Shown: positions 42,902 to 58,970, counted from the stretch's first letter. The stretch is 64,000 bases of DNA from Candidatus Multivoradales bacterium (GCA_965223155.1 CBDCVR010000014.1:1248001-1312000), one strand, 5' to 3'. Notes: a model not told the origin generated them from the letters alone. Translations and numbers: made by a program.

Positions 42902-45900
42902 CTAACTGACCGCGGCCTCGTCGTCGATGTCGGTGGCCAGGGCGTGGAGGACTCTCTCGTGCTCGCGGACCAACTCGACGAGAAGGTCGGCGACGTTCGG
43001 TGCCGTACCGGCGCCGTCTTCGATCTCGGTACAGATCTCGGCCAGGCGGCTGGCGCCGATCATGGCGCTCGAGGATCGGAACTTGTGCGCCAGGTAGGTC
43101 AACTGCTCGTGGTCACCGGCCGAGGCCGCCGATCCCATCAATTCGACCTGCTCGCCCGACGTCGTCCGGTAAAGGCGCAGGATCCGCAGCGCGCCTTCCT
43201 TGGACAGCGGATCCCAGAGGTAGCGCTTCTGCTCCTCGAGATTGATCGGCGAGTCCGCATCCGGGGAGACCCCTGCCTCGGCCCCGGAGGGCACGAGCTT
43301 GAGGCCCGAGAACCGGTTCTCCGGGCTCACCTTGGCAGGCATCGGCTGCACCTCCTTGCGAACCGCCGGCAGCCAGCGACGCAGAACGGCGAAGAGCTGA
43401 TCCTGGCTGAAGGGCTTGCTTAGGTAGTCGTCCATACCGGCGGCAAGACACTTCTCGCGCTCGCCCGCCAGCGCGTGGGCGGTCATCGCGACGATCGGGA
43501 CCCGGAGCGTCTCGGGCCTCGAGCGAATCTCGTTGGTGGCCGTGTACCCGTCCATGTGTGGCATCTGGCAGTCCATCAGAATGAGGTCGAAGCTCTGGGC
43601 GTCTAACGCTCTCAAGGCTTCGATGCCATTGCTCGCGACTTCCACGGTGCCACCCAGGCCTTCGAGCATTCCGCAGACTACGTCCTGGTTGATCTCATTG
43701 TCCTCGACCAAGAGCACCCGCCGCTCGTGGAGATTGGGCGGCGACGCCGCGGCAACCCGGGCCAGGGCCTCGTCGGTGCGCATCCGGGAAGTGCTGGCCT
43801 GGCGCTCGAGGCGCACCTCGAACCAGAAGGTTGAACCCTCGTTCCAAGTACTATCGACGCCGATCTCGCCGCCCATCATCTCGACGAACGCCCTGGAGAT
43901 CGCCAAGCCCAAGCCGGTACCGCCGAACCGGCGCGTGGTCGAGCCGTCGGCTTGCTGGAAGGTGTCGAAGATCACCTCGCTTTCCTCGGAGCTGATGCCG
44001 ATGCCGGTATCGCGCACCTCGAAGCGGAGCTTGACGTCGGCCTCGGTTGATTCCACCGGTTCGACTTCGAGCGAGACGAATCCTGAATCGGTGAACTTGA
44101 CTGCGTTACCGACCAGGTTGATCAAGATCTGGCGCAGCCGGGTAGGGTCTCCGACGAGCTTCCTCGGGCAGCGCTGGAGCGCGGAGGAGCGCAAGACGAG
44201 CCCCTTGCGCCCGGCCTGCTCGTCAAAGAGGCCTAGCACCTCGTCCAGGACTCCCTGGAGGTCGAAGGCCACCTCCTCCAACTCCAACTTGCCGGCCTCG
44301 ATCTTGGAGAAGTCCAGGATCTCGTTCAGGATCCCGAGCAGGTTGCCGGCCGAATCCCGCGCCTTCTCCGCGCAGGCCGCCTGGCCGGCGGACAGGTCGC
44401 TATTCATCAGGAGCTCGAGCATGCCCAGCACTCCGTTCATCGGCGTGCGAATCTCGTGGCTCATATTGGCCAGGAACTGGGACTTGGCTCGCGAGGCGCT
44501 CTCGGCGTGCTCTTTTTCTTTTTGGAGGCGAATCATGTCGGTGACGTCGGTGCCCGAGCTGAGGGTTCCGGCCGCCCTGCCGTCGTCGCCGCTCAGATAC
44601 GTCGTTTGCCAGGAAATGACCCGCTCGTCTCCGCCCCGCGTACGCACTCGGTACTCGGAGGAACGCGGCGCTTTGGCACCCACCAGGCTCCGTCGCACGA
44701 CCTCCGGCTCACAGACGAAGGACTCGAACCAGTTGCGGCCGATGAGATCCGCCTCCTCATAGCCAAGGAGCTGGCAGCCCTTGCGGTTGACGAGAACGAT
44801 CTGCCCGTCCACGTCCAGCACCAACATGATGACCTCGGCCACCTGAAAGTAGTTCTGCGCCTTGGTCTTCTCACGAAAGAGCGCTTGCTCCTTGGCGACG
44901 CGGCGCTGGATCTCATCCTCCAGGGCGGTATTGGCCGCCGCCAGCTCGCGGGTTCGCTGCCGCTTTCGAAGCTGACCGCGCAGGTAGTACGCGGCCCCCA
45001 GCAGCACCGCGATCGAATAGCCGACAAACGCCCACCAGGTAGCCCATGGCGGTGCCAGCGCTCGCAATTTGAGGGTCAGTCCTTCCCGGTTCCAGACCCC
45101 GTCGTTGTTGGAGGCCTGGACGCGAAACGTGTACTCGCCCGAGTCTAGATTGGTGTAGGTCGCCCGGCGCCGATTGCCCAGGTCAACCCAGTCCTTGTCG
45201 AAGCCTTCCAACTTGTAGCGGTACCGGTTGCGCTCGGGCGCGGTGTAGTCGAGGGCCGCGAAATCGAACGTCACCATCGAGTCGGTATGTTCCAGAACCA
45301 GCTCCTCGAGCTGGGTCACCGGACGATCGAAGATCGCCTCCTCGTTGAGCTTCAGAACCCGGGTCAGAAACACCGGCGGTGCGTGCGGATTGGTTCGAAT
45401 CTGGTTGGGATCGAAGACGTTGAATCCGTTGAGCCCGCCAAAGAACATGGTGCCGTCGCGAGCGCGCAACGCGGCGGCGAAGTTGAACTCCTCGCTCTGC
45501 AGGCCGTGGCTGGTGTTGTAGTTGCGAAACGTGCCGGTGGCGGGATCCAGAACCGCAAGGCCTCGATTGGTACTGAACCAGAGTTGGCCGTCGTCATCCA
45601 GCAGCGACCCATAGACCGTGTGGCTGGAGAGCCCGTCCCGAGGAAGGTACCGGGAGAAGACCGTCCGGCGCGCGCGGCGATCGCTCGCCGCCCACCGGTT
45701 GAGCCCACCCCCCTGGGTGCCGATCCAGAGGTCGCCCACGGCGTCCTCGACGATGGTCCAGGCATGCTGCGAGCTCAGGCTGAAAGGATCCTCGGGATCG
45801 TAGGTGAAGTGATCGAAAGTCCCCCGGTCCCGGTCCATGCGGTTCAAGCCGCCGCCGTCGGTGCCGATCCAGAGCATGCCGTTAGCGTCCTCGTAGATCG

Positions 45901-47470
45901 CGACCACCCGATCGCTGGACAGGCTGGCCCCGTCCTCGCCGTCATGGCGATAGGCCGAGAACGACTCACCGTCGGCACTCAATTGATTGAGACCGCCGCG
46001 ATAGGTGCCGACCCAAATCTGGCCGTGAGAGTCCTCGAAAATCGCGGTCACGCCATCGAAGCTGAGGCTCGTGGGGTCAGACGGATCGTGGCGAAAGTTC
46101 CGGAAGTGGCCGGTGGCGAGATCGAGCATGTCCAGACCGGAGGCGACCGTGCCAATCCAGACCCGGTCCTGCGTGTCGACGTAAACGGAAGCGACGCGGT
46201 TATCGCTCGGCCCCCCCCTCACGTTGGACGGATCGTGCCGATAGCGGCGAAAGCGGCCCGTCCCGCGATCGAACACGTTCAGGCCGTCGACGGTGCCGAT
46301 CCAGATCCGGCCGGCCGAATCCTCACTGAACGAAGTCACGTAGTTATGGCTTAGCCGGGCCGGATCATCGGGCTTGGCGGTGAAATGGGGAAACGTCCCA
46401 CTCAACGGGTTCCACTTGTTGAGCCCGTCGTCGGTACCCACCCAAACGACGCCGCCCCGATCCTGGAACAGGGACTTGATGCGATCGTGGCCGAGGCTGT
46501 AGGGATCCGCTGGATCGTGGCGATAGACCCGGAAGTCCCTGCTCGCCGGATCCCAGGCTCCAAGTCCGGTGTCCGTGCCGACCAGGAGCAGGCCGGCGCT
46601 GTCTTGAAAGATTGCGTTGACGGCCCCAGGGGGCAGGTTCGATCCGGCCGAATCGAAGCGCTCGAAGGTCCCGGTCGCGCGATCGAACCGGTTCAGCCCC
46701 TTGTCGGCCGTACCGATCCAGAGATCGCCGTTGCCGTCTTCGAAGAGCTGTACCAGCCGGTCGCTCGACAAACTCGCCGGATCGGCTGGATCGTGCCGGT
46801 ACTGCGTGAACAGGCGGGCACCCACGTTCAGGACGTTGAGGCCGCCGCCGTCGGTCGCGACCCAGACGCGCCCGGCGCCATCCTGATGGAGATCGCGAAC
46901 ATGCCCGTGGCTCAAGCCGGATGCGTCATCGGCTATCGCAGGAAAACGGTCGGCCTGACCCGTCTCCCGATCGAAACGGTTGAGCCCACCGCCATCGGTG
47001 CCGATCCAGAAGTCTCCAGCCCGATCCTGGAGGATGACCCGAATGCGGTTGCTGCTGAGGCTTTGCGGATCGTCGGCGTCGTGCCGAAAATGCCGGAAAC
47101 TGCCGTCGACCGGATTCAAGCGGTCGAGGCCGCCGGTGTCAGTGCCGATCCAGAGAAAACCGTCTTCGTCCTCCACGATGGCTCGAACACTATTGTGGGA
47201 CAGGGTCGCCGGATCGGCCGGATCGTGGCGGAAGAGCTTGAACTCATAGCCGTCGAAACGATTGAGGCCCTCCTGGGTGCCGAACCAGAGGAAGCCGTCC
47301 CGGTCCTGGGCGATGACGTTGACTGCCGCTTGCGACAAGCCCTCTTCGAGCGAGACTCTCTGAAACCGCGTCTTGGTCTCGCGCGTGTTGCCAGACACAG
47401 GCAAGGCGGCCATCACCAGGATGGCCGCCAAACCCTTGAAAACGCGAAACTGAAACGACCGAAACATCAC
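42902..47470 (-). CDS. Hybrid sensor histidine kinase: periplasmic beta-propellers, Y_Y_Y, TM, PAS, HisKA, HATPase, REC, HPt
   Basis: Repeated D..G.(L/I)W(I/V)GT..GL blades, YRYKLEGFD, PPW.TWW, FLANMSHEIRTPMNG, NLVGNAVKFT, GGTGLGL, LMDCQMP, AHKFRSSS. Confidence 0.93.
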   Translation of the reverse strand: MMFRSFQFRVFKGLAAILVMAALPVSGNTRETKTRFQRVSLEEGLSQAAVNVIAQDRDGFLWFGTQEGLNRFDGYEFKLFRHDPADPATLSHNSVRAIVEDEDGFLWIGTDTGGLDRLNPVDGSFRHFRHDADDPQSLSSNRIRVILQDRAGDFWIGTDGGGLNRFDRETGQADRFPAIADDASGLSHGHVRDLHQDGAGRVWVATDGGGLNVLNVGARLFTQYRHDPADPASLSSDRLVQLFEDGNGDLWIGTADKGLNRFDRATGTFERFDSAGSNLPPGAVNAIFQDSAGLLLVGTDTGLGAWDPASRDFRVYRHDPADPYSLGHDRIKSLFQDRGGVVWVGTDDGLNKWNPLSGTFPHFTAKPDDPARLSHNYVTSFSEDSAGRIWIGTVDGLNVFDRGTGRFRRYRHDPSNVRGGPSDNRVASVYVDTQDRVWIGTVASGLDMLDLATGHFRNFRHDPSDPTSLSFDGVTAIFEDSHGQIWVGTYRGGLNQLSADGESFSAYRHDGEDGASLSSDRVVAIYEDANGMLWIGTDGGGLNRMDRDRGTFDHFTYDPEDPFSLSSQHAWTIVEDAVGDLWIGTQGGGLNRWAASDRRARRTVFSRYLPRDGLSSHTVYGSLLDDDGQLWFSTNRGLAVLDPATGTFRNYNTSHGLQSEEFNFAAALRARDGTMFFGGLNGFNVFDPNQIRTNPHAPPVFLTRVLKLNEEAIFDRPVTQLEELVLEHTDSMVTFDFAALDYTAPERNRYRYKLEGFDKDWVDLGNRRRATYTNLDSGEYTFRVQASNNDGVWNREGLTLKLRALAPPWATWWAFVGYSIAVLLGAAYYLRGQLRKRQRTRELAAANTALEDEIQRRVAKEQALFREKTKAQNYFQVAEVIMLVLDVDGQIVLVNRKGCQLLGYEEADLIGRNWFESFVCEPEVVRRSLVGAKAPRSSEYRVRTRGGDERVISWQTTYLSGDDGRAAGTLSSGTDVTDMIRLQKEKEHAESASRAKSQFLANMSHEIRTPMNGVLGMLELLMNSDLSAGQAACAEKARDSAGNLLGILNEILDFSKIEAGKLELEEVAFDLQGVLDEVLGLFDEQAGRKGLVLRSSALQRCPRKLVGDPTRLRQILINLVGNAVKFTDSGFVSLEVEPVESTEADVKLRFEVRDTGIGISSEESEVIFDTFQQADGSTTRRFGGTGLGLAISRAFVEMMGGEIGVDSTWNEGSTFWFEVRLERQASTSRMRTDEALARVAAASPPNLHERRVLLVEDNEINQDVVCGMLEGLGGTVEVASNGIEALRALDAQSFDLILMDCQMPHMDGYTATNEIRSRPETLRVPIVAMTAHALAGEREKCLAAGMDDYLSKPFSQDQLFAVLRRWLPAVRKEVQPMPAKVSPENRFSGLKLVPSGAEAGVSPDADSPINLEEQKRYLWDPLSKEGALRILRLYRTTSGEQVELMGSAASAGDHEQLTYLAHKFRSSSAMIGASRLAEICTEIEDGAGTAPNVADLLVELVREHERVLHALATDIDDEAAVS

Positions 47471-47492
47471 CGAAACATACTAGTGGCTCAAC

Positions 47493-49172
47493 TCAGTCGT
47501 CGTTGAGGAACATGTCACTAGCAGACTGGATGTAGAGCGGGTCGCCATTGGGAACCGCATCCGACCAGAGGAAGCCGTCGCTCCACAGGAAGCCGTCACT
47601 CCACAGGAAGCCGTCGCTCCACAGGAAGCCGTCACTCCACAGGAAACCGTCGCTCCACAGAAAGCCATCGCTCCACAGGAAGCCGTCGCTCCAGAGGAAG
47701 CCCGCGGCCCACTGGTCGCCGTCCCAGAGCTCCGCCGTGTCCTCGATGAGGATCGCGTTGTCGCCCTCGACTCGCCTCAGCCGTGGCGACCAGGCGCGGG
47801 AGGCCGAGTCACTCGAATCGAAAAGCGCGGCCTGAATATTCAAGACGCCAGCTCCCGCCGCAACCGGACTCCAGTCGACCTTGCGCGCCGTTCGCATGAG
47901 CCGAGCCTTGATCGTGTCCGGATCCAACGAAGGGTCGTCCGCGATCATCATCGCAACCGCACCCGAGACTACGGCCGCCGCCATGCTGGTGCCACTGAGT
48001 TCGAAGTACTGACCGCTGCAATTCGAGCTGCCGCAGCTTCGAAGCCGCTCCGGCATCTCTTCGACCATGCGAGACTGGTAGGAGATCGGCGCAATGAACC
48101 GGTTTCCAGGGGCCAAGAGATCGGGCTTCAGGAAATGATCGAATGCGGTTGGTCCCTGGGACGAATAGGTCGAAACATAGTCGTCCCAGAAATAGTTGGT
48201 GCCGTTATCGGTCACCGATCCGACCGTGATGACGCTACGTGAATTGCCAGGGCTGGTGACGGTGAACCGGCCATCGCGGCCGTAATTGCCCGCCGAGCAC
48301 ACCACCACCATTCCTTGATCCCAAACCTTCTCGACCGCCTCGACCAAAGGATCGCGTCTGGCTTCGGCTTGGACTCCCATACCTATCGACATGTTGACGA
48401 CCCGGACATCAAAGGACGAACCACGATCCAGGAGCCAGTCGAGAGCCGCCAGCACGTCCGAAGTCACGCCCCGTCCGTGGGAATCGAGCGCCCGAAGCGA
48501 GAGCACTCGGGCGTACGGTGCGATGCCACGGTACTGTCCCTTCGAATCGTATCCGTCTCCACCGATGATCCCGGCAACATGGGTACCGTGACCGTAGGGA
48601 TCGTAAAGTCCGGTACCCGAGCTGTTGTCCGAGCACTCATCATCGTCGCAACGACCGCCGACGAAGTCGAACTGAATCGGACTAGGCCAGATGTCAACGT
48701 GAGAGCCCACGCCGGAATCGATGACAGCAACGGTAGGCGTGCCTGCCGTATTGTTGAAGTTCGGCGCAGTAGTCGCATGCGGATGACGCGCGGTTTGCCG
48801 AGCCGACACCGAGCTTGCCTCGACGGTTTCGTCCACGGCAACGTACTCGATCCTCGGATGGTCCACGAGAGACCGGAGGCGAGCCTCGGGAACGCGAACC
48901 GCGCGCATCGAGAAGTTCTTGTACTTGCGCAGAATCTCGACGCCGCTCGCCTCGAGCTCCTGGTCGTCAGCCAGCCCCGGGGGCGTGGTGAACTTCAAGA
49001 TCACGTCGACTTTGGTCTCCCGACCAGGCGCCTCGGCCTGGCCCCGCGCTTCGGCGGCGGGACTGACGAGCAGCGCGGCCGCCATGGCCAGCAACAGCGT
49101 TGCCGTCGCTACCGAGGGTGCCGGTACCAGGTTCCAAAGAACATCATGCAGAAAGGAAGGTCGCGACATCAT
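47493..49172 (-). CDS. Secreted S8 subtilisin-like peptidase with C-terminal (GFLWSD)8
   Basis: AGGAG RBS; signal peptide and propeptide; catalytic triad VIDSG / HGTHVAG / GTSMAA; SAGN. Confidence 0.9.
   Translation of the reverse strand: MMSRPSFLHDVLWNLVPAPSVATATLLLAMAAALLVSPAAEARGQAEAPGRETKVDVILKFTTPPGLADDQELEASGVEILRKYKNFSMRAVRVPEARLRSLVDHPRIEYVAVDETVEASSVSARQTARHPHATTAPNFNNTAGTPTVAVIDSGVGSHVDIWPSPIQFDFVGGRCDDDECSDNSSGTGLYDPYGHGTHVAGIIGGDGYDSKGQYRGIAPYARVLSLRALDSHGRGVTSDVLAALDWLLDRGSSFDVRVVNMSIGMGVQAEARRDPLVEAVEKVWDQGMVVVCSAGNYGRDGRFTVTSPGNSRSVITVGSVTDNGTNYFWDDYVSTYSSQGPTAFDHFLKPDLLAPGNRFIAPISYQSRMVEEMPERLRSCGSSNCSGQYFELSGTSMAAAVVSGAVAMMIADDPSLDPDTIKARLMRTARKVDWSPVAAGAGVLNIQAALFDSSDSASRAWSPRLRRVEGDNAILIEDTAELWDGDQWAAGFLWSDGFLWSDGFLWSDGFLWSDGFLWSDGFLWSDGFLWSDGFLWSDAVPNGDPLYIQSASDMFLNDD
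47559..47702 (-). repeat. 18-bp coding tandem repeat x8 (GFLWSD)
   Basis: Eight contiguous units that differ only at synonymous positions. Confidence 0.95.
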
Positions 49173-49174
49173 TC

Positions 49175-51001
49175 TTACTCCTGATCGACCCATTTGTTGG
49201 TTCGCACCGCGTCGGTCGCGGCGAAGGTATCGGTCCAAAGAAAGCCGTCGGTCCACAAGAAACCGTCGGTCCAGAGAAAGCCATCGGTCCAGAGAAAGCC
49301 GTCGGTCCACAAAAAACCGTCGGTCCAGAGAAAGCCATCGGCAAACGCCGCGGCATCGGTCCAAAGAAAGCCGTCGGTCGACGGCGAGGTGTCCGTCCAG
49401 AGGAACCCGTCCAGGCCTTCCAAGTAGTACGTCCCGTCCTCGGTCACCCGAGCCCGGCCGACGTAGTGCTCGACCCCGGCCAGATCCCGGTCAATGTCCA
49501 GGCCCTGGTTGGCGCAGAGACAGTCGTCCTTGGCCTTGAAGCGCTGCTCGACCGCCTCGTAGGCGTCAATGAGTCCCGCGCCTTGCTGAAAGACGCTGGC
49601 CGCGAGCTCACCCGTCTCGGTCAGCGCAGGACGCGCGGTCGCCATCAGGCGAAACTTGACTTCATCGGGAGTCAGAGAAGGGTGCTCTTCCAAAACGAGC
49701 GCCACGACACCGCTGACCACGGCGGCAGATTGGGAGGTGCCGGACATCATGAAGTAGAGGCCACCGTTGTGGAACTCGGGATGCTCGTTCGCCAACGTCG
49801 AGAACACGCTCATCAGTGAAACGATGTGACCTCCGGGCGCCAAGACGTCGGGTTTGACAAAGCCCTCGGCCGTCGGTCCGGCGGCCGAGAAGTAGGTCAG
49901 CCGATCGTCGGTCCGGTCCGCGGGGGTGAAGTTGTCGGTCATGGCCCCCACCGTGATGACGTAGGGCACGTTGCCCGGTACGCCGATCGTCATGGCGTCC
50001 GGGCCCCCATTCCCCGCTGAAGCCACCACCACGATGCCCGCACGCCAGGCCTCCATGACGGCCTGGTTGAGCGGATCGTCCCAGTAGTGGGAGCGCGCGG
50101 GGGCGCTGAAGGACAGATTCAGGACCCGAATGCCGTAGGCGTCGCGATTGCGCACGATCCAGTCGATGCCCCGGATGACGTCGGCATAGCTGCCCAGGCC
50201 CTCAGCATCGAAGGCCTTCACCACGACCAGATCGGCGTCTGGCGCGATGCCGTTGTAGCCACGTCCATCGTCGCTTATCCGGCTGTTGACTGCGACCGAC
50301 GCGACGTGTCCGCCATGACCGAACTGGTCGGTTCCGAAAACCGAGGTACCGTGATCGGTGTCGCTGATCGCGTCGTAGTGTCCTAGAAGCCGAGTCTGCC
50401 CGTCCGAGTCCAGGTAGACGCCCGAATGGGAGGCGAACCCTGAATCCAGAACTGCGATCGTCACCCCGCGCCCTGTTGCCGCGCGCTCATGCACCCGATC
50501 CGCCTCGACTCGCTCCGGAAACTCCACGTAGGGATCGAGGTGCGATTCGAAGAGGGCTCTCCATGCGCTGTAGGAGCTGGTCCCCTCTTCCCCACCTGTA
50601 GACGTTGTGGTCGTCTCTTCGCTGGATTCCCCGGCCGTTGCCGATTCAATGTCCTCTGAAGTGCTACTACTTGCCTCACCTGAGGTCCGAGAGCTCCTCG
50701 TCTTCTTGGCGCTCGAGACCGTCGAGTCCTCGTAAACCCGGATGCCGGAACGGGTCTCGAGGTGATCGCGTTGGGCGGCGGTCAGATGGGCGCCGACCGC
50801 CCGGATCACGGTCAGCCGGTGGGTGACCGAGCCCCCCACGGCTTCCACCGCCTCGGCGGCCAGGTCGACGTTCTTCGCCTGGACGATGTAGGACTTCTTG
50901 GCCGAGGCATCTTCGGCCTCGGCTCGCATCGCCAGAGCAGGCACCAGCAGGAGGGCGCCGATCCAGGCGAGGACGAGAGATTGCACACGAGTTCGATTCA
51001 C
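49175..51001 (-). CDS. Secreted S8 subtilisin-like peptidase with eight C-terminal GFLWTD units
   Basis: Signal peptide and propeptide; catalytic triad VLDSG / HGGHVAS / GTSQSA; SAGN. The GTG start at 51001 is chosen because the longer ORF would span the sigma54 motif. Confidence 0.9.
   Translation of the reverse strand: MNRTRVQSLVLAWIGALLLVPALAMRAEAEDASAKKSYIVQAKNVDLAAEAVEAVGGSVTHRLTVIRAVGAHLTAAQRDHLETRSGIRVYEDSTVSSAKKTRSSRTSGEASSSTSEDIESATAGESSEETTTTSTGGEEGTSSYSAWRALFESHLDPYVEFPERVEADRVHERAATGRGVTIAVLDSGFASHSGVYLDSDGQTRLLGHYDAISDTDHGTSVFGTDQFGHGGHVASVAVNSRISDDGRGYNGIAPDADLVVVKAFDAEGLGSYADVIRGIDWIVRNRDAYGIRVLNLSFSAPARSHYWDDPLNQAVMEAWRAGIVVVASAGNGGPDAMTIGVPGNVPYVITVGAMTDNFTPADRTDDRLTYFSAAGPTAEGFVKPDVLAPGGHIVSLMSVFSTLANEHPEFHNGGLYFMMSGTSQSAAVVSGVVALVLEEHPSLTPDEVKFRLMATARPALTETGELAASVFQQGAGLIDAYEAVEQRFKAKDDCLCANQGLDIDRDLAGVEHYVGRARVTEDGTYYLEGLDGFLWTDTSPSTDGFLWTDAAAFADGFLWTDGFLWTDGFLWTDGFLWTDGFLWTDGFLWTDTFAATDAVRTNKWVDQE
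49229..49408 (-). repeat. 18-bp-register coding repeat: 8 x GFLWTD with two in-register hexamer spacers
   Basis: GFLWTD-TSPSTD-GFLWTD-AAAFAD-(GFLWTD)6; synonymous codon variation between units. Confidence 0.95.
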
Positions 51002-51080
51002 GAATTGAATTCCTTGAGTTCTCTTGAGGACTTGTTCGATGGTTTGCTGGGCGTTTCTCCGCCGGACGCAGCCTGCTAGG

Positions 51081-51095
51081 GCAAGGGGCATGCCG
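51081..51095 (-). promoter_or_regulatory. Sigma54 (-24/-12) promoter for the subtilase-kinase operon
   Basis: Reverse complement CGGCATGCCCCTTGC = GG-N10-GC, about 80 bp upstream of the peptidase start. Confidence 0.65.
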
Positions 51096-51490
51096 TTGGC
51101 GTATTCGCATAACGCGATGTATCCCCAGAGTGGATTCACACCCGGTATCCCTTGCCATCAAGGGACTTTCTTCGGAGCACTTCGAGCAGAAACAATCGGA
51201 GCCAGATCTTGGCCGGCGGTCTTCCGGGGAGTTTTTCCCGAGCTTCCGCGGGTGGCAAGGAAATCCTCCCGGGAGCTATGGCGAGCCGGCCCCGGTCGCC
51301 GGCTCGCCACCGGCTCGGACCGTCGAGATGAATCCCCGTGGCGTGGGCGACGGCGCCGCCAAGTCCGAGAACCTCTCGCCACCCTACCCTTGAACTTCTC
51401 GCGGGCCCACCCGTTCGGGTATGGTCACCCAACGCCGTGAGCGGTTAGATGACACGGAGGGCGGCGCCGTCGCTCGAGAGGAGGTTGCGA

Positions 51491-52081
51491 ATGTCCAGTG
51501 ATCGGGAATCATCCAGGCGGAGTTTCGTCTCGCGCCTGTCCTCGGTGGCCCTCGTCGGCGGCTTGGCCAGCGCCTACGGCACGCTTGCCGCGTTCATGGG
51601 GCGCTTCGTCTATCCGGCAAGGCCCCGCCAGAGGAGCTGGATGTTTCTCTTCGACGTCGATCGGCTGGCGCTGGGCGATGCCATCGACTACCGCGCTCCG
51701 GACGGCGCCGCGGTGACCGTCGCCCGTCAGAGCGAAGGACGCGGGGAAGAGGCGTTCGTCGCGCTTTCCGGAACCTGTCCACACCTTGGCTGCCGCGTGC
51801 ACTGGGAGCCCCAGAACGATCGCTTCTTCTGTCCCTGCCACAATGGGACGTTCGACTCGGACGGCACGGCAACCGGCGGACCGCCCTTAGAGGCCGGGCA
51901 ATCCTTGCCTCGATACCCCCTCAAGGTGGAGCGTGGTCTCGTCTACATCGAGGTTCCGACCGAGTCGCTGTCCGGCCAGCAGGCCCGTAGCGCCGGCCGC
52001 ATGATCGAGCTCCGGAAGATCTCGGCCCGGCCCGGATTCGATCCCTGCCTCGCAGCCGGTAGAAGCTGCAGGAGCGCCTAG
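51491..52081 (+). CDS. Rieske [2Fe-2S] subunit of a Rieske/cytochrome b complex
   Basis: Tat motif SRRSFV plus TM; CPHLGC and CPCHNGTF. Confidence 0.92.
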   Translation: MSSDRESSRRSFVSRLSSVALVGGLASAYGTLAAFMGRFVYPARPRQRSWMFLFDVDRLALGDAIDYRAPDGAAVTVARQSEGRGEEAFVALSGTCPHLGCRVHWEPQNDRFFCPCHNGTFDSDGTATGGPPLEAGQSLPRYPLKVERGLVYIEVPTESLSGQQARSAGRMIELRKISARPGFDPCLAAGRSCRSA

Positions 52082-52084
52082 CCC

Positions 52085-53134
52085 TTGAACGCCCTCCAGG
52101 CATGGCTCCAGGACCGTCTGCCGATCCAGGCGGACGATCTGCGCGAACTCACCAACGAGCCGGTTCCGAATCACCTGAAGCGCTGGTGGTTCGCGCTAGG
52201 AGGAACGCCCGCCTATCTCTTCGTCGTCCAGATCGTGACCGGCATCTTGCTGGCGATCTACTACCAGCCGGCGCCGGCAACCGCCTACGAGTCGGTCCGC
52301 TACATCACCGAAGAAGCGGCTTTCGGCTGGTACTTGCGGGGCCTCCACAAGTGGGCGGCCACCTTCATGATCGCCGCGGTCATCCTGCACCAGATGCGGG
52401 TCTACTTCACCGGCGCCTATCGCAAGCCGCGCGAGATCAACTGGATGGTCGGCATGTGCCTCCTGATCTCGACCCTGATGCTTGGTTTTACCGGCTATAG
52501 CCTGGTTTACGAGCAGCTCAGCTACTGGGGCGCGACCGTGGGCGCCAACATCAGCGCCAGCGTGCCGGTGTTCGGCGAGTTGATGCGCAACCTGCTCCTC
52601 GGCGGCGAGGCCTACAACAGCAGGACCCTGTCGCGCTTCTTCATCCTGCACGCGGCCGTCCTACCCACGACGCTCGTCCTGCTCCTGGTCGTCCACATCG
52701 CCATCATTCGCATGCAGGGAGTCACCGAGTACCGGTTCAAGGACGACACCGAGGACAAGCCCAAGCACTTCAGTTTCTTTCCGGATCACCTCCTGACCGA
52801 GATCCTGATCGGGTTGGTTCTCATGATCTTGCTGACTGCCCTGGCGACGATCTATCCGCCGGAGATGGGGCCCAAGGCCGATCCGCTGGTCACCCCCGAA
52901 GTCATCAAGCCGGAGTGGTTCTTCTACGTCGCCTTTCGCTGGTTGAAGCTCTTCTCGGGCACGGCCGCCGTCCTGAGCACCGGCTTCGTCGTTTTCATCA
53001 TGTTCGTCTGGCCGTTCATCGACGCCGCCATCCGCAAACGCACGCGCTTTCAAGAAGCCAGCATCTGGATCGGCATCGTCGGAGTCCTGGCCATCGTCGG
53101 CCTTACCGTCTGGGAAGCCCTGGTCGCCCACTGA
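52085..53134 (+). CDS. Cytochrome b of a Rieske/cytb complex (b6 + subunit IV-like, fused)
   Basis: LGG, HKWAA..LHQMRV, REINW, FTGYSL..SYWGATVG, LH..VH, KPEWFF. Confidence 0.92.
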   Translation: MNALQAWLQDRLPIQADDLRELTNEPVPNHLKRWWFALGGTPAYLFVVQIVTGILLAIYYQPAPATAYESVRYITEEAAFGWYLRGLHKWAATFMIAAVILHQMRVYFTGAYRKPREINWMVGMCLLISTLMLGFTGYSLVYEQLSYWGATVGANISASVPVFGELMRNLLLGGEAYNSRTLSRFFILHAAVLPTTLVLLLVVHIAIIRMQGVTEYRFKDDTEDKPKHFSFFPDHLLTEILIGLVLMILLTALATIYPPEMGPKADPLVTPEVIKPEWFFYVAFRWLKLFSGTAAVLSTGFVVFIMFVWPFIDAAIRKRTRFQEASIWIGIVGVLAIVGLTVWEALVAH

Positions 53135-53166
53135 GCTCCGCTGGAGCCCTCTGAGCGGGAGTACGT

Positions 53167-54819
53167 ATGACCCTTGAAACCAAACGCATCGTCATCGCCA
53201 TCCTTGCTTTCGTCTTTCTGGCTTCGCTGCTCTTGGTCCAGCGCATGGAGATCGTGCGCCGCCAAGCTGAAGCCGGTCTCAGCAAGGCCCACATCTCGGT
53301 GCCCGCAAACTCGAAGGACTGTGTTGACTGCCACGCCGAGGGCAATCCCGGCATCGTGGACCACTGGCGCGGCTCGACCCACGCCGAGAAGGGCGTGGGC
53401 TGCGTCGAGTGCCACCAGGCCGACGAGCGCGACCCCGACAGCTACCAGCACTACGGCGCGCTCATCGCCACCGTGGTGACGCCGCGCGACTGTTCGCGCT
53501 GCCATCTCGAGGAGTCCCGGGAGTTTGCTTCCAGTCACCATGCCAAGGGCGGCAACATCCTGGCCTCGCTGGACAACTTCCTGGCCGAGACGGTCGAGGG
53601 GTCCAGGGTTCCCTTCAATCCCCACTCTCCGACCCCGGGCAAGGCCGTAGACGAGGTCAACGGATTCGCCAGCGCCTTCTCCGGCTGCCAGCAGTGCCAT
53701 GGGTCCAAGGTGGCCCTTCAGGGCACCGACGGCGAGCGCGTGACGGTGGACGAGCTGGCGCCGGACGAGAACGGATTCCCCACCAGCTCGGAAGCGGTCT
53801 CGCGCATCGTGCGCGACGAGAACGGCGTGCCCGAGTTTCACCCGGGGACCTGGCCCAACACGGGCATCGGCCGCCTCAATCTGGACGGCTCCCTGGGCTC
53901 GTGCACGGCTTGCCATAGCCGCCACGATTTCTCGCCGCGGCGCGCCCGCCAGCCCGAGAACTGCGGCAAGTGCCACTTGGGCCCCGATCATCCTCAAAAG
54001 GAGATCTTCGAGGAATCCAAGCACGGCGCCGCCTACCGCGACCTCAAAGATCAGATGAATCTGGACGCGACCGATTGGGTCTTGGGTGCCGACTACTCGG
54101 CGGCGCCGACCTGCGCCACCTGCCACATGTCCGGCAACCTCAGAAACGGCGGCGACGTCACCCACGATCCCGGCGAGCGCATCTCCTGGACCAACCGGCC
54201 GCCGGTCAGCCTGGTCATGGACACCGACGTCGAGCACAAGATCGTCAAGGAGACCGATCCAGCCAAGCGAGAGGCCCTCATTCACGATTCGGCCGCCGAC
54301 AAGCGCGGGCGCATGGCCCAGGTCTGCTCGCACTGCCACACCCCCGACTACGTCAACGCCTTCTACACCCAGTACGACGATCTCGTCATCTTGTACAACG
54401 AGAAGTTCGCCAAGCCGGGGCAGGCGATCATGGGCGCGCTCAAGGACAGCGGGCTACGCACGCCGACCCAGTTCGACGAAGAGATCGAGTGGACCTGGTT
54501 CTATCTCTGGCACCACGAGGGCCGCCGGGCGCGCATGGGCGCTTCGATGATGGCGCCCGACTACACCCACTGGCACGGCATGTACGAGGTGGCCGAGCGC
54601 TTCTACATGGAGCTCATCCCGCAGGCGCGCGAGCTCGCCGAGCACGGCGCCGCCAAAGGCAAGCGCTCCCAGGCGCGGGCGGTCGAAACCCTCATCGACG
54701 GCATCCTGGCGCGGCCCGAGCACGCCTGGTTCGAACAGGGAGCCGAGGGCGAGGCCACCAAGATCCGCGAGGAAATGCAGCGCCGCTACGGCCAGTCGGG
54801 CGGCGACGAAACGAGGTAG
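53167..54819 (+). CDS. Octaheme cytochrome c, hydroxylamine oxidoreductase family
   Basis: Eight CxxCH (CVDCH, CVECH, CSRCH, CQQCH, CTACH, CGKCH, CATCH, CSHCH); CHSRHDFS, GPDHPQ, ESKHG, GASMMAPDYTHWHG; N-terminal TM. Confidence 0.9.
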   Translation: MTLETKRIVIAILAFVFLASLLLVQRMEIVRRQAEAGLSKAHISVPANSKDCVDCHAEGNPGIVDHWRGSTHAEKGVGCVECHQADERDPDSYQHYGALIATVVTPRDCSRCHLEESREFASSHHAKGGNILASLDNFLAETVEGSRVPFNPHSPTPGKAVDEVNGFASAFSGCQQCHGSKVALQGTDGERVTVDELAPDENGFPTSSEAVSRIVRDENGVPEFHPGTWPNTGIGRLNLDGSLGSCTACHSRHDFSPRRARQPENCGKCHLGPDHPQKEIFEESKHGAAYRDLKDQMNLDATDWVLGADYSAAPTCATCHMSGNLRNGGDVTHDPGERISWTNRPPVSLVMDTDVEHKIVKETDPAKREALIHDSAADKRGRMAQVCSHCHTPDYVNAFYTQYDDLVILYNEKFAKPGQAIMGALKDSGLRTPTQFDEEIEWTWFYLWHHEGRRARMGASMMAPDYTHWHGMYEVAERFYMELIPQARELAEHGAAKGKRSQARAVETLIDGILARPEHAWFEQGAEGEATKIREEMQRRYGQSGGDETR

Positions 54820-54823
54820 CAGC

Positions 54824-57175
54824 ATGAAACGACGCGAGTTCTTACAAGTGCTGTCCACGGGCGCGGCGGTCGCCGCGTTCTCGTGCCGAGATCGCGAGGA
54901 GGCCGAGCGCCTGGCGGCGAATCGAGACGCCGGCGCGATCGACCCGGCCGACCTGACCTGGGGCAAGGCTCCTTGCCGCTATTGCGGCACCGGCTGCGGC
55001 GTCGAGGTCGGCGTGCGCGACGGGCGCGCTCTGGCAGTTCGCGGCGATCAGGCCAGCCCGGTCAACCGGGGTCTCCTGTGCGTCAAGGGCTATCACCTGC
55101 CCGGCCTTCTCTACGGTGAGGACCGGCTCCTCTATCCTCAGAAACGCGGCGCCGACGGCAAGCTCGCCCGAATCTCTTGGGACGAGGCCCTGGATCTCAT
55201 CGCCGAGAACTACTCCCGCGTCCTGGAGGAGAGCGGCCCCGAGGCGGTCGCCATGTACGGCTCCGGCCAGTGGACCGTCTTTGACGGCTACGCCGCCACC
55301 AAGTGGCTACGGGGAGGCTTGCGCAGCAACAACCTGGATCCCAACGCCCGGCTGTGCATGGCGAGCGCGGTGATGGGCTTCGTGACTCAGTTTCAGAGCG
55401 ACGAGCCCATGGGCTGCTACGAGGATCTCGAGGCCGGCGACGACTTCGTACTCTGGGGCAACAACATGGCCGAGATGCACCCGGTGCTCTTCAGCCGCAT
55501 CCTGGAGACCAAGCGCGTGAAGCCCGGCACCCGCATCGTGGACATCGCCACGCGGCGCACGCCGACCTCGGACTACGCCGACATGTACGTCGAAATCCAG
55601 CCGGGCGCCGATCTGGCCCTTGCCAACGGCATCCTCCATCTGCTGGTCAAGGACGGCAAGGTCAACCGGCCCTTCGTGGAAGAAAACGTCGTCTTCAAGC
55701 GCGGCATCGAGGACGTCGATGAGATCGGCTACGGCTGCTACGGCGACGACGCCGAACGCTATACCTTCAAGGACTCCGGCCGCAACGCCTCCCTGGCCGA
55801 GCTCGAGAGCTTCCTGGCCGACTACACGCCGGAGAAGGTCAGCGCAATCTCGGGCGTCCCGACCCGGCAGATCGAGATCCTGGCCGAGATCTACGGCAAC
55901 CGCGACCGAGGCACGGTCAGCCTCTGGTGCATGGGCGTCAACCAGCACGCCCGCGGCACCTGGATGAACAATCTGCTCAACGACCTTCATCTCCTGACCG
56001 GCAAGATCAGCCGGCCTGGGAACAATCCCTTCTCGCTCACCGGCCAGCCCAGCGCCTGCGGCACCGCCCGCGAAGTCGGTACGCTTTCGAACCGCCTGCC
56101 CGCGGACATGGTGGTGATGAAGGCCGACCACCGGGCCAAGGCCGAGGAGATCTGGGGACTCGAGCCCGGAACGATCCCGGCCAAGCCCGGCTACCACACG
56201 GTCGACATGTTCCGGGCACTGGTTCGCGGCGACGTCCGGGCGATGTGGATCCAGACCACCAATCCCTGGGTCAGCCTGCCCAACTTGAACCGGTTCGAGC
56301 GCAAGCCCGGGGACGGACGCTTCCTGGTGGTCAGCGAGATCTACCCGACGCCCACCACCGACGTCGCCGACCTCGTCTTGCCCTCGGCGGCCTGGATCGA
56401 GCGCGAAGGCGTCTTCGGCAACACCGAGCGCCGCACCCAGCAGTGGAACCAGCTGGTGCCGCCTCCCGGAGAAGCCCGAGAAGACGCCTGGCAGATCATG
56501 GAGGTCGCCAAGCGCATGGGCATGGGGGGTCTGTTTCCCTACCCCGAGGAGGCCTGGCACGAGCCCATGTACGAAGAGTACCGGCGGTTCACACTCGGCA
56601 CGGGCAAGGATCTGGCCTCATACCAGGAGCTGCGCGAGACCCGCGGCAAGCTCTGGCCGGTGGTGGACGGCAAGGAGACCCGGTACCGCTACAGCGCCGA
56701 GTACGACCCTTACGTCACCAAGGACCGGGGCGTTCATTTCTACAAGGCCAAAGGCTACGGCGAGAAGGCGGCCTTCTGGATTCGCCCCTACCACCCACCG
56801 GCCGAGGGGCCGGACGACGAGTATCCGCTCTGGCTCACCACGGGACGGGTGCTGGAGCATTGGCACACCGGCTCGATGACCCGGCGCACTCCGGAGCTCC
56901 ATCAGGCGATGCCGGCGGCCACCGTCGAGATCAACCGCGCCGACGCGCAGGAGCTGGGCATCCGCTCGGGCGACCGGGTCCGCGTCGTCAGCCGCCGGGG
57001 TTCGGTCGTGCTCGAAACGGCAATCGACGGCCGCGGCAAGCCTCCGCGTGGGACGGTCTTCCTGCCTTTCTTCGACGAGGAGCGGCTGATCAACCGCCTC
57101 ACCCTCGATGCCATGGACAACATCAGCAAGGAGCCCGACTACAAGAAATGCGCGGTGCGCGTCGAACAGGCCTAG
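54824..57175 (+). CDS. napA: Periplasmic nitrate reductase catalytic subunit
   Basis: Tat RREFL; APCRYCGTGC..LCVKG; GSGQWT; DPNARLCMASAV; DEPMGCY; SLTGQPSACGTAREVG; TTGRVLEHWHTGSMTRR; EPDYKKCAV. Confidence 0.95.
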   Translation: MKRREFLQVLSTGAAVAAFSCRDREEAERLAANRDAGAIDPADLTWGKAPCRYCGTGCGVEVGVRDGRALAVRGDQASPVNRGLLCVKGYHLPGLLYGEDRLLYPQKRGADGKLARISWDEALDLIAENYSRVLEESGPEAVAMYGSGQWTVFDGYAATKWLRGGLRSNNLDPNARLCMASAVMGFVTQFQSDEPMGCYEDLEAGDDFVLWGNNMAEMHPVLFSRILETKRVKPGTRIVDIATRRTPTSDYADMYVEIQPGADLALANGILHLLVKDGKVNRPFVEENVVFKRGIEDVDEIGYGCYGDDAERYTFKDSGRNASLAELESFLADYTPEKVSAISGVPTRQIEILAEIYGNRDRGTVSLWCMGVNQHARGTWMNNLLNDLHLLTGKISRPGNNPFSLTGQPSACGTAREVGTLSNRLPADMVVMKADHRAKAEEIWGLEPGTIPAKPGYHTVDMFRALVRGDVRAMWIQTTNPWVSLPNLNRFERKPGDGRFLVVSEIYPTPTTDVADLVLPSAAWIEREGVFGNTERRTQQWNQLVPPPGEAREDAWQIMEVAKRMGMGGLFPYPEEAWHEPMYEEYRRFTLGTGKDLASYQELRETRGKLWPVVDGKETRYRYSAEYDPYVTKDRGVHFYKAKGYGEKAAFWIRPYHPPAEGPDDEYPLWLTTGRVLEHWHTGSMTRRTPELHQAMPAATVEINRADAQELGIRSGDRVRVVSRRGSVVLETAIDGRGKPPRGTVFLPFFDEERLINRLTLDAMDNISKEPDYKKCAVRVEQA

Positions 57176-57717
57176 CGGGCCTCACGGTTCTCACTCTGTT
57201 CCTCGGGTCGGCGTGTTCCGACTCCTCGAGCCGAGTGGCGGTACCCGATCGGCAGGGAGCTGAGAAGAGCGCGGCCTCGGTGCGAGCCGAGCGCCGGGCT
57301 TTCGACGGCGCGCCGCCGGTCATCGCCCACGAGAACTTCAGCATGACCTGCATCGAGTGCCACTCGGCGGCCGGCCGGCACGTCCAGGACGTCGGCTTCG
57401 CGCCGCCTTCGCCGCACGAAGCGACCGCGGGCCTGAGCGCCACCAGCCGCTGCGCGCAATGCCATGTGTTCCGCCTCACCGAGGCGGTTTGGCGCGCCAA
57501 CGACTTCGTCCCGCTCTCCCAAGACCTGCGGGCCGGGCGCCGGGCGGCGGCCGGAGCACCGCCGGTCCTGCCCCACTCTCCCTTCATGCGCGAGAACTGC
57601 GCCGCGTGTCATACGGGCCCCGCCGCGCGCGAGGAGGTCCGAACCAGCCATCCGGAGCGGCTGCGTTGCCGCCAATGCCACGTACAACGTTCCATAACCA
57701 CGGAGTTTTCACGATGA
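57148..57717 (+). CDS. napB: NapB-like cytochrome c with four hemes, putative lipoprotein
   Basis: MRGARR..FLGSAC; GAPPVIAH-CIECH..PH..CAQCH, then GAPPVLPH-CAACH..SH..CRQCH; overlaps the end of napA. Confidence 0.75.
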   Translation: MRGARRTGLAGLTVLTLFLGSACSDSSSRVAVPDRQGAEKSAASVRAERRAFDGAPPVIAHENFSMTCIECHSAAGRHVQDVGFAPPSPHEATAGLSATSRCAQCHVFRLTEAVWRANDFVPLSQDLRAGRRAAAGAPPVLPHSPFMRENCAACHTGPAAREEVRTSHPERLRCRQCHVQRSITTEFSR

Positions 57718-58970
57718 CCCTGCGTACCCGTCCATCCACCCGCCTTGCCGTCGCCATCCTGAGCCTGACGCTCTTGGCGCCGTTCGCTCTGCCCTTCCCA
57801 GCGGCGGCGGACGACCCGAACAACGGCGAGACCGCTTCGCTCGCCGACGCGATTCGAAACGGCAAGGCCGGGCTGGCTTTGCGCTACCGCGTAGAGAGCG
57901 TGGATCAGGACGGCTCCGCCAAAGAAGCCCTGGCCTCGACCTTGCGCACCACGCTTAACTACCGCACCGCCGCCTACCGCGGTTGGAGCGCTTTCGTGGA
58001 AGCCGAGAACGTCGCCGATCTGGGCGCCGATGACCAGCACAACAACGTCGGCTCCGGCTCCCTCGGCAACGGCGTCACCGACCGGCCGGTGATCGCCGAC
58101 CCGGCGCAAACCGAGCTTCATCAGGCGTACCTGCGCTGGACTGGGGACACGACCACGGTCACGGTCGGTCGCCAAGCGCTCGCCTTGGGCGACCAGCGCT
58201 TCGTCGGCCCGGTGGGCTGGCGTCAGAACCATCAGAGCTTCGACGCTTTCGCAATCCACAACCACGGGCTCGACAAGGTGGTCTTCGATTACGTCTTCGT
58301 GGACGAGGTCCAACGCATCTTCGGTGACTCGAAACCGATGGCGAGCCATCTGGCAAGCGCCGCCTTCTCGACCGGCATCGGCAAGGTCACGGCCTACGGC
58401 TGGCTACTGGACTACGACGAGACAGTGGACCGCGCGCTGTCGCGCACGACCCTGGGCCTCGAGCTTGCCGGCAAGCGCAATCGCGATCGGTACTCCTGGC
58501 TCTACGAGCTCGAGTACGCCACCCAGTCGGACGCGGGCGACAACCCGGCCGACGTCGACGCCGGCTACCTGCACGGCAGCCTGGGTGTCGCCACCGCAGC
58601 AAAGACCACCTTCAAGGTGGGCTGGGAGCTCCTCGAAGGCAACGGCGGCGCTGATCGTTTCCTGACTCCGCTGGCGACGCTCCACAAGTTCAACGGCTGG
58701 GCCGACAAGTTCCTGGCGACCCCCGGAGCCGGCCTCGAAGACCTCTACCTTCAGCTCTCGGGGAGCCGCAACAAGCTCGCTTGGACGATCAAGGCCCATG
58801 ACTTCAACGCCGACTCCTCGAGCGCGAGCTACGGCAGCGAGCTCGATGCCCAGCTCACCTGGAAGGGACCCCAGGGCCTGGTTTTCGGCGTGAAGGGCGC
58901 CTACTACGACGCCGACGAGTTCGCGACGGATACCACCAAGCTGTGGCTTTGGAGCGCCTGGAAGCTCTAG
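57714..58970 (+). CDS. Outer-membrane beta-barrel, alginate export family-like porin
   Basis: Signal peptide, LRYRVESVDQ, QAYL, VGRQ..DQRFVG.VGWRQN.QSFD, PLATLHKFNGWADKFL, C-terminal beta-signal LWSAWKL. Confidence 0.8.
   Translation: MTLRTRPSTRLAVAILSLTLLAPFALPFPAAADDPNNGETASLADAIRNGKAGLALRYRVESVDQDGSAKEALASTLRTTLNYRTAAYRGWSAFVEAENVADLGADDQHNNVGSGSLGNGVTDRPVIADPAQTELHQAYLRWTGDTTTVTVGRQALALGDQRFVGPVGWRQNHQSFDAFAIHNHGLDKVVFDYVFVDEVQRIFGDSKPMASHLASAAFSTGIGKVTAYGWLLDYDETVDRALSRTTLGLELAGKRNRDRYSWLYELEYATQSDAGDNPADVDAGYLHGSLGVATAAKTTFKVGWELLEGNGGADRFLTPLATLHKFNGWADKFLATPGAGLEDLYLQLSGSRNKLAWTIKAHDFNADSSSASYGSELDAQLTWKGPQGLVFGVKGAYYDADEFATDTTKLWLWSAWKL

Follow-up and report, generated by a model that had tools for sequence, protein, structure and literature searches.

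The periplasmic reduction of nitrate by Nap and haem-based nitrite reduction are usually viewed as non-conserving at the quinol step. According to Garg, Taylor and Kelly (2018, PMC6195509), genetic evidence shows that Nap of Campylobacter jejuni depends on QcrABC, a menaquinol:cytochrome c reductase, and not on NapC, and this route is described as electrogenic, with an H+/2e- ratio of 2. For Caldithrix abyssi, Kublanov et al. (2017, PMC5317091) describe a locus (Cabys_2564-2556) comprising napM, napA, napG, napH, genes for a Rieske protein and a cytochrome b, and epsilon-Hao, and propose that the Rieske/cytochrome b (Rieske/cytb) pair feeds NapM and/or the octaheme cytochrome, possibly in an electrogenic manner. 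In Nitrospira moscoviensis and Nitrospira japonica, an octaheme cytochrome named OCC ('ONR') is accompanied by two upstream Rieske and cytochrome b genes; the trio is reported to be co-expressed, with the octaheme switched on with nitrite and not when ammonium is supplied, and is attributed to nitrite reduction with ammonium as the product (PMC6606698, PMC6311188). The R/b complex of Kuenenia stuttgartiensis (Kuste4569-4574) includes the HAO-like octaheme Kuste4574, and co-migration of all its subunits is reported (PMC12954380). Here, we describe a cluster of six genes located in a stretch of 64,000 nucleotides (the window) from Candidatus Multivoradales bacterium (GCA_965223155.1 CBDCVR010000014.1:1248001-1312000), encoding a Rieske protein, a cytochrome b, an octaheme cytochrome c of the HAO family, the nitrate reductase NapA, a tetraheme lipoprotein and an outer-membrane porin (Table 1).

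All six genes lie on the plus strand at 51449-58970. The open reading frame listing gives spacings of +3, +32, +4, -28 and -4 nucleotides (nt), which confirms an original prediction of six tightly spaced, co-oriented genes (gaps from -28 to +32 nt). NapA starts 4 nt past the stop codon of the octaheme gene, the start of the porin gene overlaps the stop codon of the tetraheme gene (ATGA), and a gap of 186 nt separates the porin from the next gene downstream. Position 51491, at which the cluster had previously been taken to begin, corresponds to Met15 of the Rieske frame 51449-52081 and is an alternative start. Genes for cytochrome c1, NapC, NapG/H, NapD and NrfA were found neither in the cluster nor among the seven flanking genes scanned with Pfam and NCBIfam, as had also been predicted for the cluster. 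On balance, we favour reading the six genes as one operon, predicted to encode a quinol-driven machine for periplasmic nitrate and nitrite reduction. The prediction had set this arrangement against a canonical Nap fed by non-electrogenic NapC or NapGH, a view that is out of date in light of Qcr in C. jejuni (PMC6195509) and the Caldithrix proposal (PMC5317091), as presented in these papers. Its remark that related bc-HAO pairings are known in other phyla agrees with the Caldithrix, Nitrospira and Kuenenia systems as described.

The Rieske protein displays a twin-arginine motif (SRRSFV) and a hydrophobic anchor in a motif scan, and holds the cluster boxes CPHLGC (residues 110-115) and CPCH (residues 128-131). 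After the second box the sequence reads N-G-T-F, with Gly and Phe replacing the Ser and Tyr of bc1-type Rieske proteins, an exchange that marks Rieske proteins of low potential and of the menaquinol type. In cytochrome b, an N-terminal part resembling b6 is fused to a C-terminal part resembling subunit IV (Cytochrom_B_C, 38 bits), and its match to the NCBIfam cytochrome b6 model reaches 219.6 bits. The ligand pairs His88/His102 and His189/His204 and the motif PEWF (residues 276-279) are invariant in 20 sequences; the spacing of the histidines is presumably of the b6 type. Ala occupies the position of the Cys in the b6 motif 'CLGG', a Cys that is carried by b6 proteins binding haem c(n). Both predicted proteins together hold all cofactor ligands of a quinol-oxidising core. 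A gene for a monohaem cytochrome c1 or f was not found in the cluster, where the third gene encodes the octaheme, a cytochrome of another family.

This octaheme contains eight CxxCH motifs, all of them invariant in 19 relatives. A hydrophobic helix spans residues 3-35 at its N-terminus; residues 1-35 show a mean majority frequency of 0.63 across phyla, and the segment is modelled as one long helix with a predicted local distance difference test (pLDDT) score of 83-92. Because it is both conserved and modelled as a single helix, this segment may be a retained anchor that contacts partner proteins, rather than a cleaved signal peptide. Gene order and conserved helix agree with the predicted membrane-anchored octaheme in the position of cytochrome c1.

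Searches of the PDB with the octaheme return 4QO5 (IhOCC of Ignicoccus, 5.8e-45), 6H5L (Kuenenia Kustc0458/HAOr, 2.1e-21) and the HAO of Nitrosomonas europaea (about 2e-18). The same order is obtained with the octaheme family profile, at 181 bits (3.1e-52) for IhOCC, 107 bits for HAOr and 78 bits for the N. europaea enzyme. A search of representative clusters with the HAO profile yields 2413 clusters at E <= 0.001, of which the best 150 are all closer than IhOCC. IhOCC is described as an octaheme nitrite reductase that has no P460 cofactor (PMC9250108). Taken together, the octaheme of this cluster is a probable IhOCC-like, reductive-type member of the HAO family.

Asp274-His275 of the octaheme aligns with the 'DH' of N. 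europaea HAO (HMMER), beside the haem-6 motif, and is invariant; in HAO, this Asp-His pair has a catalytic role. Conservation within the protein peaks in the region of haems 5-7 (residues 246-330), where the mean majority frequency reaches 0.90. Based on the Asp-His pair and the kinship with IhOCC, we predict that the octaheme is catalytically competent. Alternatively, it might act as an electron wire only, i.e. as a multihaem substitute for cytochrome c1 or f which serves soluble or lipid-anchored acceptors such as the tetraheme, NirS or oxidases with no catalysis of its own. Its gene position and membrane anchor would suit such a role, and many Rieske/cytb complexes, among them a second one of the host (see below), have a multihaem cytochrome in place of c1. 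Yet the strongest conservation falls on the Asp-His pair and the haem 5-7 region, the full HAO/IhOCC architecture of 550 amino acids is kept although a wire could be far smaller, and every characterised member of the family is presented as an enzyme (PMC9250108, PMC8042395), which makes a pure wire improbable.

In the region of the cross-link tyrosine, PDB searches with the whole protein, the profile and the C-terminal 171 amino acids gave no alignment to N. europaea HAO. His468 of the octaheme is invariant in 19 sequences. We assume that it occupies the probable cross-link position, a placement made via the IhOCC alignment and the N. europaea sequence, and not by a tool alignment to the latter. 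At the key site, His is said to mark the reductive state and Tyr the oxidative state (PMC12758564). An oxidative octaheme, which would convert hydroxylamine or hydrazine to nitric oxide (NO) or nitrite as in nitrifiers, is the usual reading of 'hao' genes in metagenome surveys. For the present protein, only family membership speaks for it, and we consider it very improbable: His, not Tyr, stands invariantly at the probable cross-link position, and a Rieske/cytb complex runs from quinol toward high-potential acceptors.

NapA passes the NCBIfam equivalog model NF010055 (943.1 bits, cut-off 904) and falls just below the cut-off of TIGR01706 (916 bits, cut-off 930.55). It contains the Pfam domains Molybdopterin, Molydop_binding and Molybdop_Fe4S4, a twin-arginine signal (KRREFLQ) and an N-terminal 4Fe-4S Cys motif. 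The following gene had been predicted to encode NapB, which does not hold in the canonical sense: its product is a lipoprotein with four CxxCH motifs instead of two and consists of two NapB-like halves. In the family alignment, the lipobox Cys23 is nearly invariant, and each of the two repeats comprises an APPV(I/L)xH, a CxxCH and a C-Q-CHV motif. The tetraheme of the window itself scores 15 bits on Pfam NapB (cut-off 25.1), and this model matches 25 of 25 family members at E <= 5, with 9.7e-10 as the best value. In the PDB, top matches of the tetraheme profile are the NapB chains 3ML1_B (2e-4) and 1OGY_B (3.4e-4). Judged by these motifs and profile matches, the tetraheme is a NapB-derived tandem duplication ('double NapB') and not a canonical NapB. 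The porin carries a signal peptide and matches Alginate_exp at 45.5 bits (cut-off 25.2).

A scan for the octaheme with one genome per species returned 565 relatives, and synteny was analyzed on the best 80 loci (68-80% identity), with counts restricted to loci with enough flanking DNA. Going by their record titles, these 80 loci span Gemmatimonadota, Acidobacteriota, Planctomycetota, Chloroflexota, Myxococcota, Omnitrophota, Eiseniibacteriota and Binatia. Cytochrome b lies directly upstream of the octaheme in 67 of 74 loci and a Rieske gene just upstream of cytochrome b in 60 of 72; some of the misses are threshold effects, as the cytochrome b of L058, L065 and L069 is split and the gap in these loci is wider. 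NapA directly follows the octaheme in 38 of 78 loci, and this direct order is found, where NapA is present, in Gemmatimonadota, Acidobacteriota, Planctomycetota and Eiseniibacteriota. The tetraheme comes after NapA in all loci that could be counted (31/31), and the porin after the tetraheme in 2 of these 31. Porin homologues (at least 40% identity) stand beside the cluster in 9 of the 80 loci, in 2 of them after the tetraheme, in 5 upstream of the Rieske gene and co-oriented with it, and in 2 on the opposite strand. The 40 loci without NapA have no common downstream gene, the largest shared family being present in 6 of them. Recurrence in dozens of loci of several phyla places the arrangement far outside what chance would give. 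What is conserved as a unit is the Rieske-cytb-octaheme trio, to which NapA and the double NapB are a recurrent add-on in about half of the loci. The cluster is conserved, but not as a whole six-gene unit, given the share of loci with NapA. In a quick octaheme tree (81 rows, none dropped, 2 outside the groups), NapA linkage requires 8 changes, at least 3 of which are forced by well-supported branches, as compared to 26.6 with shuffled labels. The window carries the provisional group label 'Gemm' in this tree.

A second sample covered the phylum of the host with 201 genomes, host included. A near-full-length octaheme orthologue (at least 66% identity) is present in 13 of them, and its distribution is patchy, because the sampled genome of the same genus and that of the same family lack one. 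Two partial octaheme matches may be decayed copies: G186:C1:2996850-2997623 covers residues 34-291 with one internal TAG, and G164:C5:721009-721848 covers residues 142-423. Among the 12 other carriers, a NapA orthologue adjoins the octaheme in 5, while the query used detected none at E <= 1e-100 in the remaining 7. Strong matches to NrfA occur in 44 of the 201 genomes (one being G152), but in just 1 of the 13 octaheme carriers. Three of the 201 genomes have NirS, the host being the only octaheme carrier among them; NirK is found in 5 of 201 genomes, a few to which G186 belongs, and in 0 of 13 carriers. As the genomes are related to each other, these counts are descriptive and do not constitute a test. 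In 11 of the 13 carriers, the types searched include no candidate for a periplasmic nitrite reductase other than the octaheme.

The host genome itself (G000; 4.0 Mb, 15 contigs, 98.66% complete) was searched for further components of nitrogen oxide metabolism. Profile searches gave no match to Pfam NapB or NirK, and none to NapD (PF03927) or NapH (TIGR02163); NapG was not searched for. NrfA (PF02335) gave no match, with a control matching Escherichia coli and Bacteroides, and neither did the sirohaem domain NIR_SIR (PF01077), whose control matched 11 of 14 genomes. A missing PF01077 would also mean that the usual kind of assimilatory sulfite reductase is missing. The search for NosZ (TIGR04246) matched only CuA domains of oxidase subunit II. 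The original prediction had proposed a check of the genome for NapC, NapD, NrfA, NirS and NirK. NapH, NapD, NrfA and NirK gave no match, but a cd1 NirS and one gene of the NapC/NirT family are present. With these two genes in the genome, 'nitrate to ammonium' and 'no NapC elsewhere' are not settled, although the NapC/NirT-family gene is part of a CymA/MtrA/MtrB-like cluster.

This cluster is located on contig C15 (L002:6595-10790, minus strand). Its NapC/NirT-family tetraheme (204 amino acids) scores 39 bits against a NapC/NirT cut-off of 310.6 and adjoins a DmsE-family decahaem cytochrome (340 amino acids; 259.8 bits, cut-off 192.2). The same porin-cytochrome cluster encodes an MtrB/PioB outer-membrane barrel (751 amino acids, 297 bits), which suggests a function in extracellular electron transfer or iron oxidation. 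A second Rieske/cytb complex is encoded on contig C15 as well (L085:3908-9458, minus strand), with a separate b6 (261 amino acids), a subunit-IV-like protein (359 amino acids) and a protein of 977 amino acids whose cytochrome c domains are of both the multihaem and the monohaem type; this complex probably serves as the housekeeping complex III. The host has four haem-copper oxidases, none of which is a clear NorB. One of them, on contig C13 (L089:1147-3506, minus strand), has a divergent subunit I of 572 amino acids together with a CuA-type subunit II; this subunit I scores 224 bits on Pfam COX1 and only 85 bits on CtaD, and could be of the B-family or NO-reductase-like. The only strong NapA paralogue of the genome, also on contig C13, was considered as a nitrate reductase and rejected, as it is a formate dehydrogenase. 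Its alpha subunit (L094:3729-7529, minus strand) is fused to a NuoG/HoxU-like iron-sulfur N-terminal part, and an in-frame TGA at L094:5418-5420 corresponds to about position 126-139 of the Fdh-alpha model, the usual place of selenocysteine.

Based on this dataset, we hypothesize the following mechanism. Menaquinol would be oxidised at the quinol-oxidising (Qo) site of the Rieske/cytb core. One electron would pass via the Rieske cluster into the chain of haems in the octaheme and the other via both b haems, in a Q cycle that would render the reaction electrogenic. The octaheme would reduce nitrite at its own five-coordinate haem 4 and would also pass electrons to the lipid-anchored double NapB and on to NapA, which would reduce nitrate to nitrite. 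The porin would admit nitrate and nitrite through the outer membrane. We lean towards this route from menaquinol via Rieske/cytb and the octaheme to double NapB and NapA, with ammonium as a likelier product of nitrite reduction at the octaheme than NO. Such a layout would probably let both nitrate and nitrite reduction conserve energy. Ammonium is favoured because IhOCC is the nearest relative, because the Nitrospira octaheme is reported to be tied by expression to ammonium formation (PMC6606698, PMC6311188), and because the host genome has neither NrfA nor a sirohaem enzyme, while most carriers lack NrfA.

Several points weigh against this mechanism. HAO-family enzymes are trimers and Rieske/cytb complexes are dimers, which constitutes an assembly mismatch. 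The structure models of both the octaheme and the tetraheme are of low confidence: for the octaheme, mean pLDDT is 52.7, with confidence only in the N-terminal helix and the C-terminal helices, and for the tetraheme it is 54.3. The placement of His468 comes from the IhOCC alignment and the N. europaea sequence rather than from a tool alignment (see above). For the Kuenenia complex, AlphaFold3 is reported to have given no reasonable model that includes the HAO-like subunit (PMC12954380). Kuenenia HAOr makes NO from nitrite, according to the account in PMC8042395, and sequence does not allow a prediction of what the present octaheme produces. In addition, the host encodes a cd1 NirS on contig C14 (L084:9019-11178, plus strand; 719 amino acids, two extra N-terminal cytochrome c domains), so that nitrite could go to NO without the octaheme. 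Finally, the CymA-like cytochrome or the second Rieske/cytb complex could feed Nap instead. The NirS gene stands alone between a gene of the metallo-beta-lactamase fold and a two-component/Pho-type region.

The presence of NirS bears on a variant of the mechanism with unchanged wiring, in which the octaheme would convert nitrite to NO, or would dispose of NO or hydroxylamine, in an organism that would be a partial denitrifier. The module would in that case be an NO-forming quinol:nitrite reductase, or a reductase of NO or NH2OH. As the host genome has NirS and no clear NorB or NosZ, some enzyme must handle NO. The cross-link-free HAOr of Kuenenia is described as reducing nitrite to NO, and also NO and hydroxylamine (PMC8042395), and NO is the product proposed for the HAO-like subunit in the R/b complex of Kuenenia (PMC12954380). 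On the other hand, IhOCC and not HAOr is the closest solved relative (181 vs. 107 bits), and the OCC module of Nitrospira is linked by its expression to ammonium formation, as reported (PMC6606698). Furthermore, 12 of 13 carriers have no NirS and 12 of 13 no NrfA, so most have no other ammonium-forming enzyme, and the host is devoid of a sirohaem nitrite reductase. We therefore regard the NO variant as unlikely, though as the alternative to be taken most seriously.

A different objection concerns the connection to Nap. In Shewanella, CymA feeds Nap. The adjacency of the genes in the present cluster could reflect co-regulation only, with NapA and the tetraheme fed by the CymA-like cytochrome or by the second Rieske/cytb complex with its large cytochrome c. 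The existence of both on contig C15 agrees with this explanation, as does the fact that pairing with NapA is not obligate, the link having been gained or lost at least 3 times, or 8 times by parsimony. However, the CymA-like gene lies inside the decahaem and MtrB/PioB cluster and scores far below the NapC/NirT cut-off (39 vs. 310.6 bits). Moreover, NapA begins within 4 nt of the octaheme stop, and the direct octaheme-NapA order is kept across four phyla. Mere co-regulation thus appears quite improbable, and electron supply from the trio to NapA via the double NapB remains the route that we favour.

As a bolder and more tentative proposal, which we consider possible but would not rely upon, the trio may form a stable, Q-cycle-pumping quinol:nitrite oxidoreductase supercomplex that is the main route from nitrite to ammonium in many NrfA-less Gemmatimonadota, Acidobacteriota, Planctomycetota and Chloroflexota, and that together with NapA and double NapB would reduce nitrate to ammonium in one electrogenic machine. 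If the trio is such an ammonifying supercomplex, a large part of the 'hao' signal seen in metagenomes of soil and sediment would mark nitrite ammonification and not nitrification. More generally, nitrate respiration and ammonification would yield more energy with a dedicated Rieske/cytb module in the same operon, in bacteria of soil and sediment that are widespread and for the most part uncultured. The module also has a bearing on the interpretation of 'hao' genes in metagenome surveys, and offers a simpler model for the unresolved HAO-containing Rieske/cytb complexes of anammox bacteria.

Table 1. Features of the predicted nitrate and nitrite reduction cluster and its upstream region (positions counted from the first nucleotide of the window)
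Feature	Position	Strand	Details
Divergent intergenic region, 309 nt	51140..51448		Upstream of Rieske gene; probable promoter/regulatory region
Rieske [2Fe-2S] subunit	51449..52081	+	210 amino acids; Pfam Rieske 41.5 bits
Cytochrome b (b6 + subunit IV fusion)	52085..53134	+	349 amino acids; Pfam Cytochrome_B 172.9 bits
Octaheme cytochrome c, HAO family	53167..54819	+	550 amino acids; Multi-haem_cyto 78.3 bits
NapA	54824..57175	+	783 amino acids; NF010055 943.1 bits
Lipoprotein tetraheme, 'double NapB'	57148..57717	+	189 amino acids; family alignment and NapB profile matches
Outer-membrane porin, Alginate_exp / Opr-like	57714..58970	+	418 amino acids; Pfam Alginate_exp 45.5 bits

The guanine plus cytosine content of the window is 62-70%. 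The genes on both flanks are unrelated to the operon. On the downstream flank, a GNAT acetyltransferase, a gamma-glutamyltranspeptidase and a PD40 protein are encoded. Upstream, the minus strand (42902-51139) encodes a hybrid sensor histidine kinase of 1522 amino acids with Reg_prop beta-propellers, Y_Y_Y, PAS, HisKA, receiver and Hpt domains. A tandem pair of S8 subtilases comes next, 623 and 654 amino acids long, with an overlap of their longest open frames (47493-49364 and 49175-51139). The region that separates the S8 peptidase gene from the operon contains a palindrome of 18 nt (51148-51165), in which an exact inverted repeat of 7 bp flanks a centre of 4 nt. Its scoring was limited to terminator-like hairpins, and it might serve as a site for a regulator. 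A scan of the upstream intergenic region for sigma-70-like sites gave 0, with 0.8 expected from shuffles, a result that is uninformative in a genome of 65% GC.

Comparison with the known systems was made by gene content. The Caldithrix locus is similar in composition, as it is described to combine NapA, a tetraheme carrier, a Rieske/cytb pair and an HAO-family octaheme without NapB, NapC or NrfA (PMC5317091). According to the same description, NapGH is retained there as an alternative quinol oxidase, and the tetraheme is called NapM. The present cluster differs by the lack of NapG/H, by the tandem NapB-like lipoprotein, by the order Rieske-cytb-octaheme-NapA-tetraheme and by the porin; the likeness is one of gene content. 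The Nitrospira module resembles the present trio, again by gene content, in its three genes for a Rieske protein, a cytochrome b and a periplasmic octaheme and in its proposed link to the quinol pool, but is read as assimilatory, and no adjoining Nap genes are described for it (PMC6606698, PMC6311188). The Kuenenia complex, as presented in PMC12954380, likewise combines a Rieske protein and a b6-type cytochrome b plus subunit IV with an HAO-like octaheme that is proposed to reduce nitrite with the high-potential electron. It has in addition a hexahaem cytochrome and an NAD(P) oxidoreductase subunit, with a proposed role in making NAD(P)H, and genes for these, or for a second octahaem c subunit, are not found in the present cluster, in which b6 and subunit IV are moreover fused, unlike in Kuenenia.

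In C. jejuni, the Qcr complex is described as a housekeeping complex with a dihaem c subunit that is encoded elsewhere (PMC6195509), whereas the present cluster holds a dedicated Rieske/cytb module with an octaheme of the enzyme type within the nap operon. IhOCC of Ignicoccus hospitalis (PDB 4QO5) shares the eight haems and a long insertion between the haem-4 and haem-5 motifs with the octaheme; it is archaeal, and matches it in separate stretches only. It is described as lacking P460 (PMC9250108) and as membrane-associated (PMC4429474), and these accounts, as consulted, mention no Rieske/cytb partner for it. Beyond these precedents, we found no description of the exact five- or six-gene layout in the open-access literature. 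For Caldithrix, Nitrospira and anammox bacteria, the idea of the wiring has been published before. Three features set the present cluster apart, namely the lack of NapGH, the double NapB lipoprotein in place of NapM, and the attached porin.

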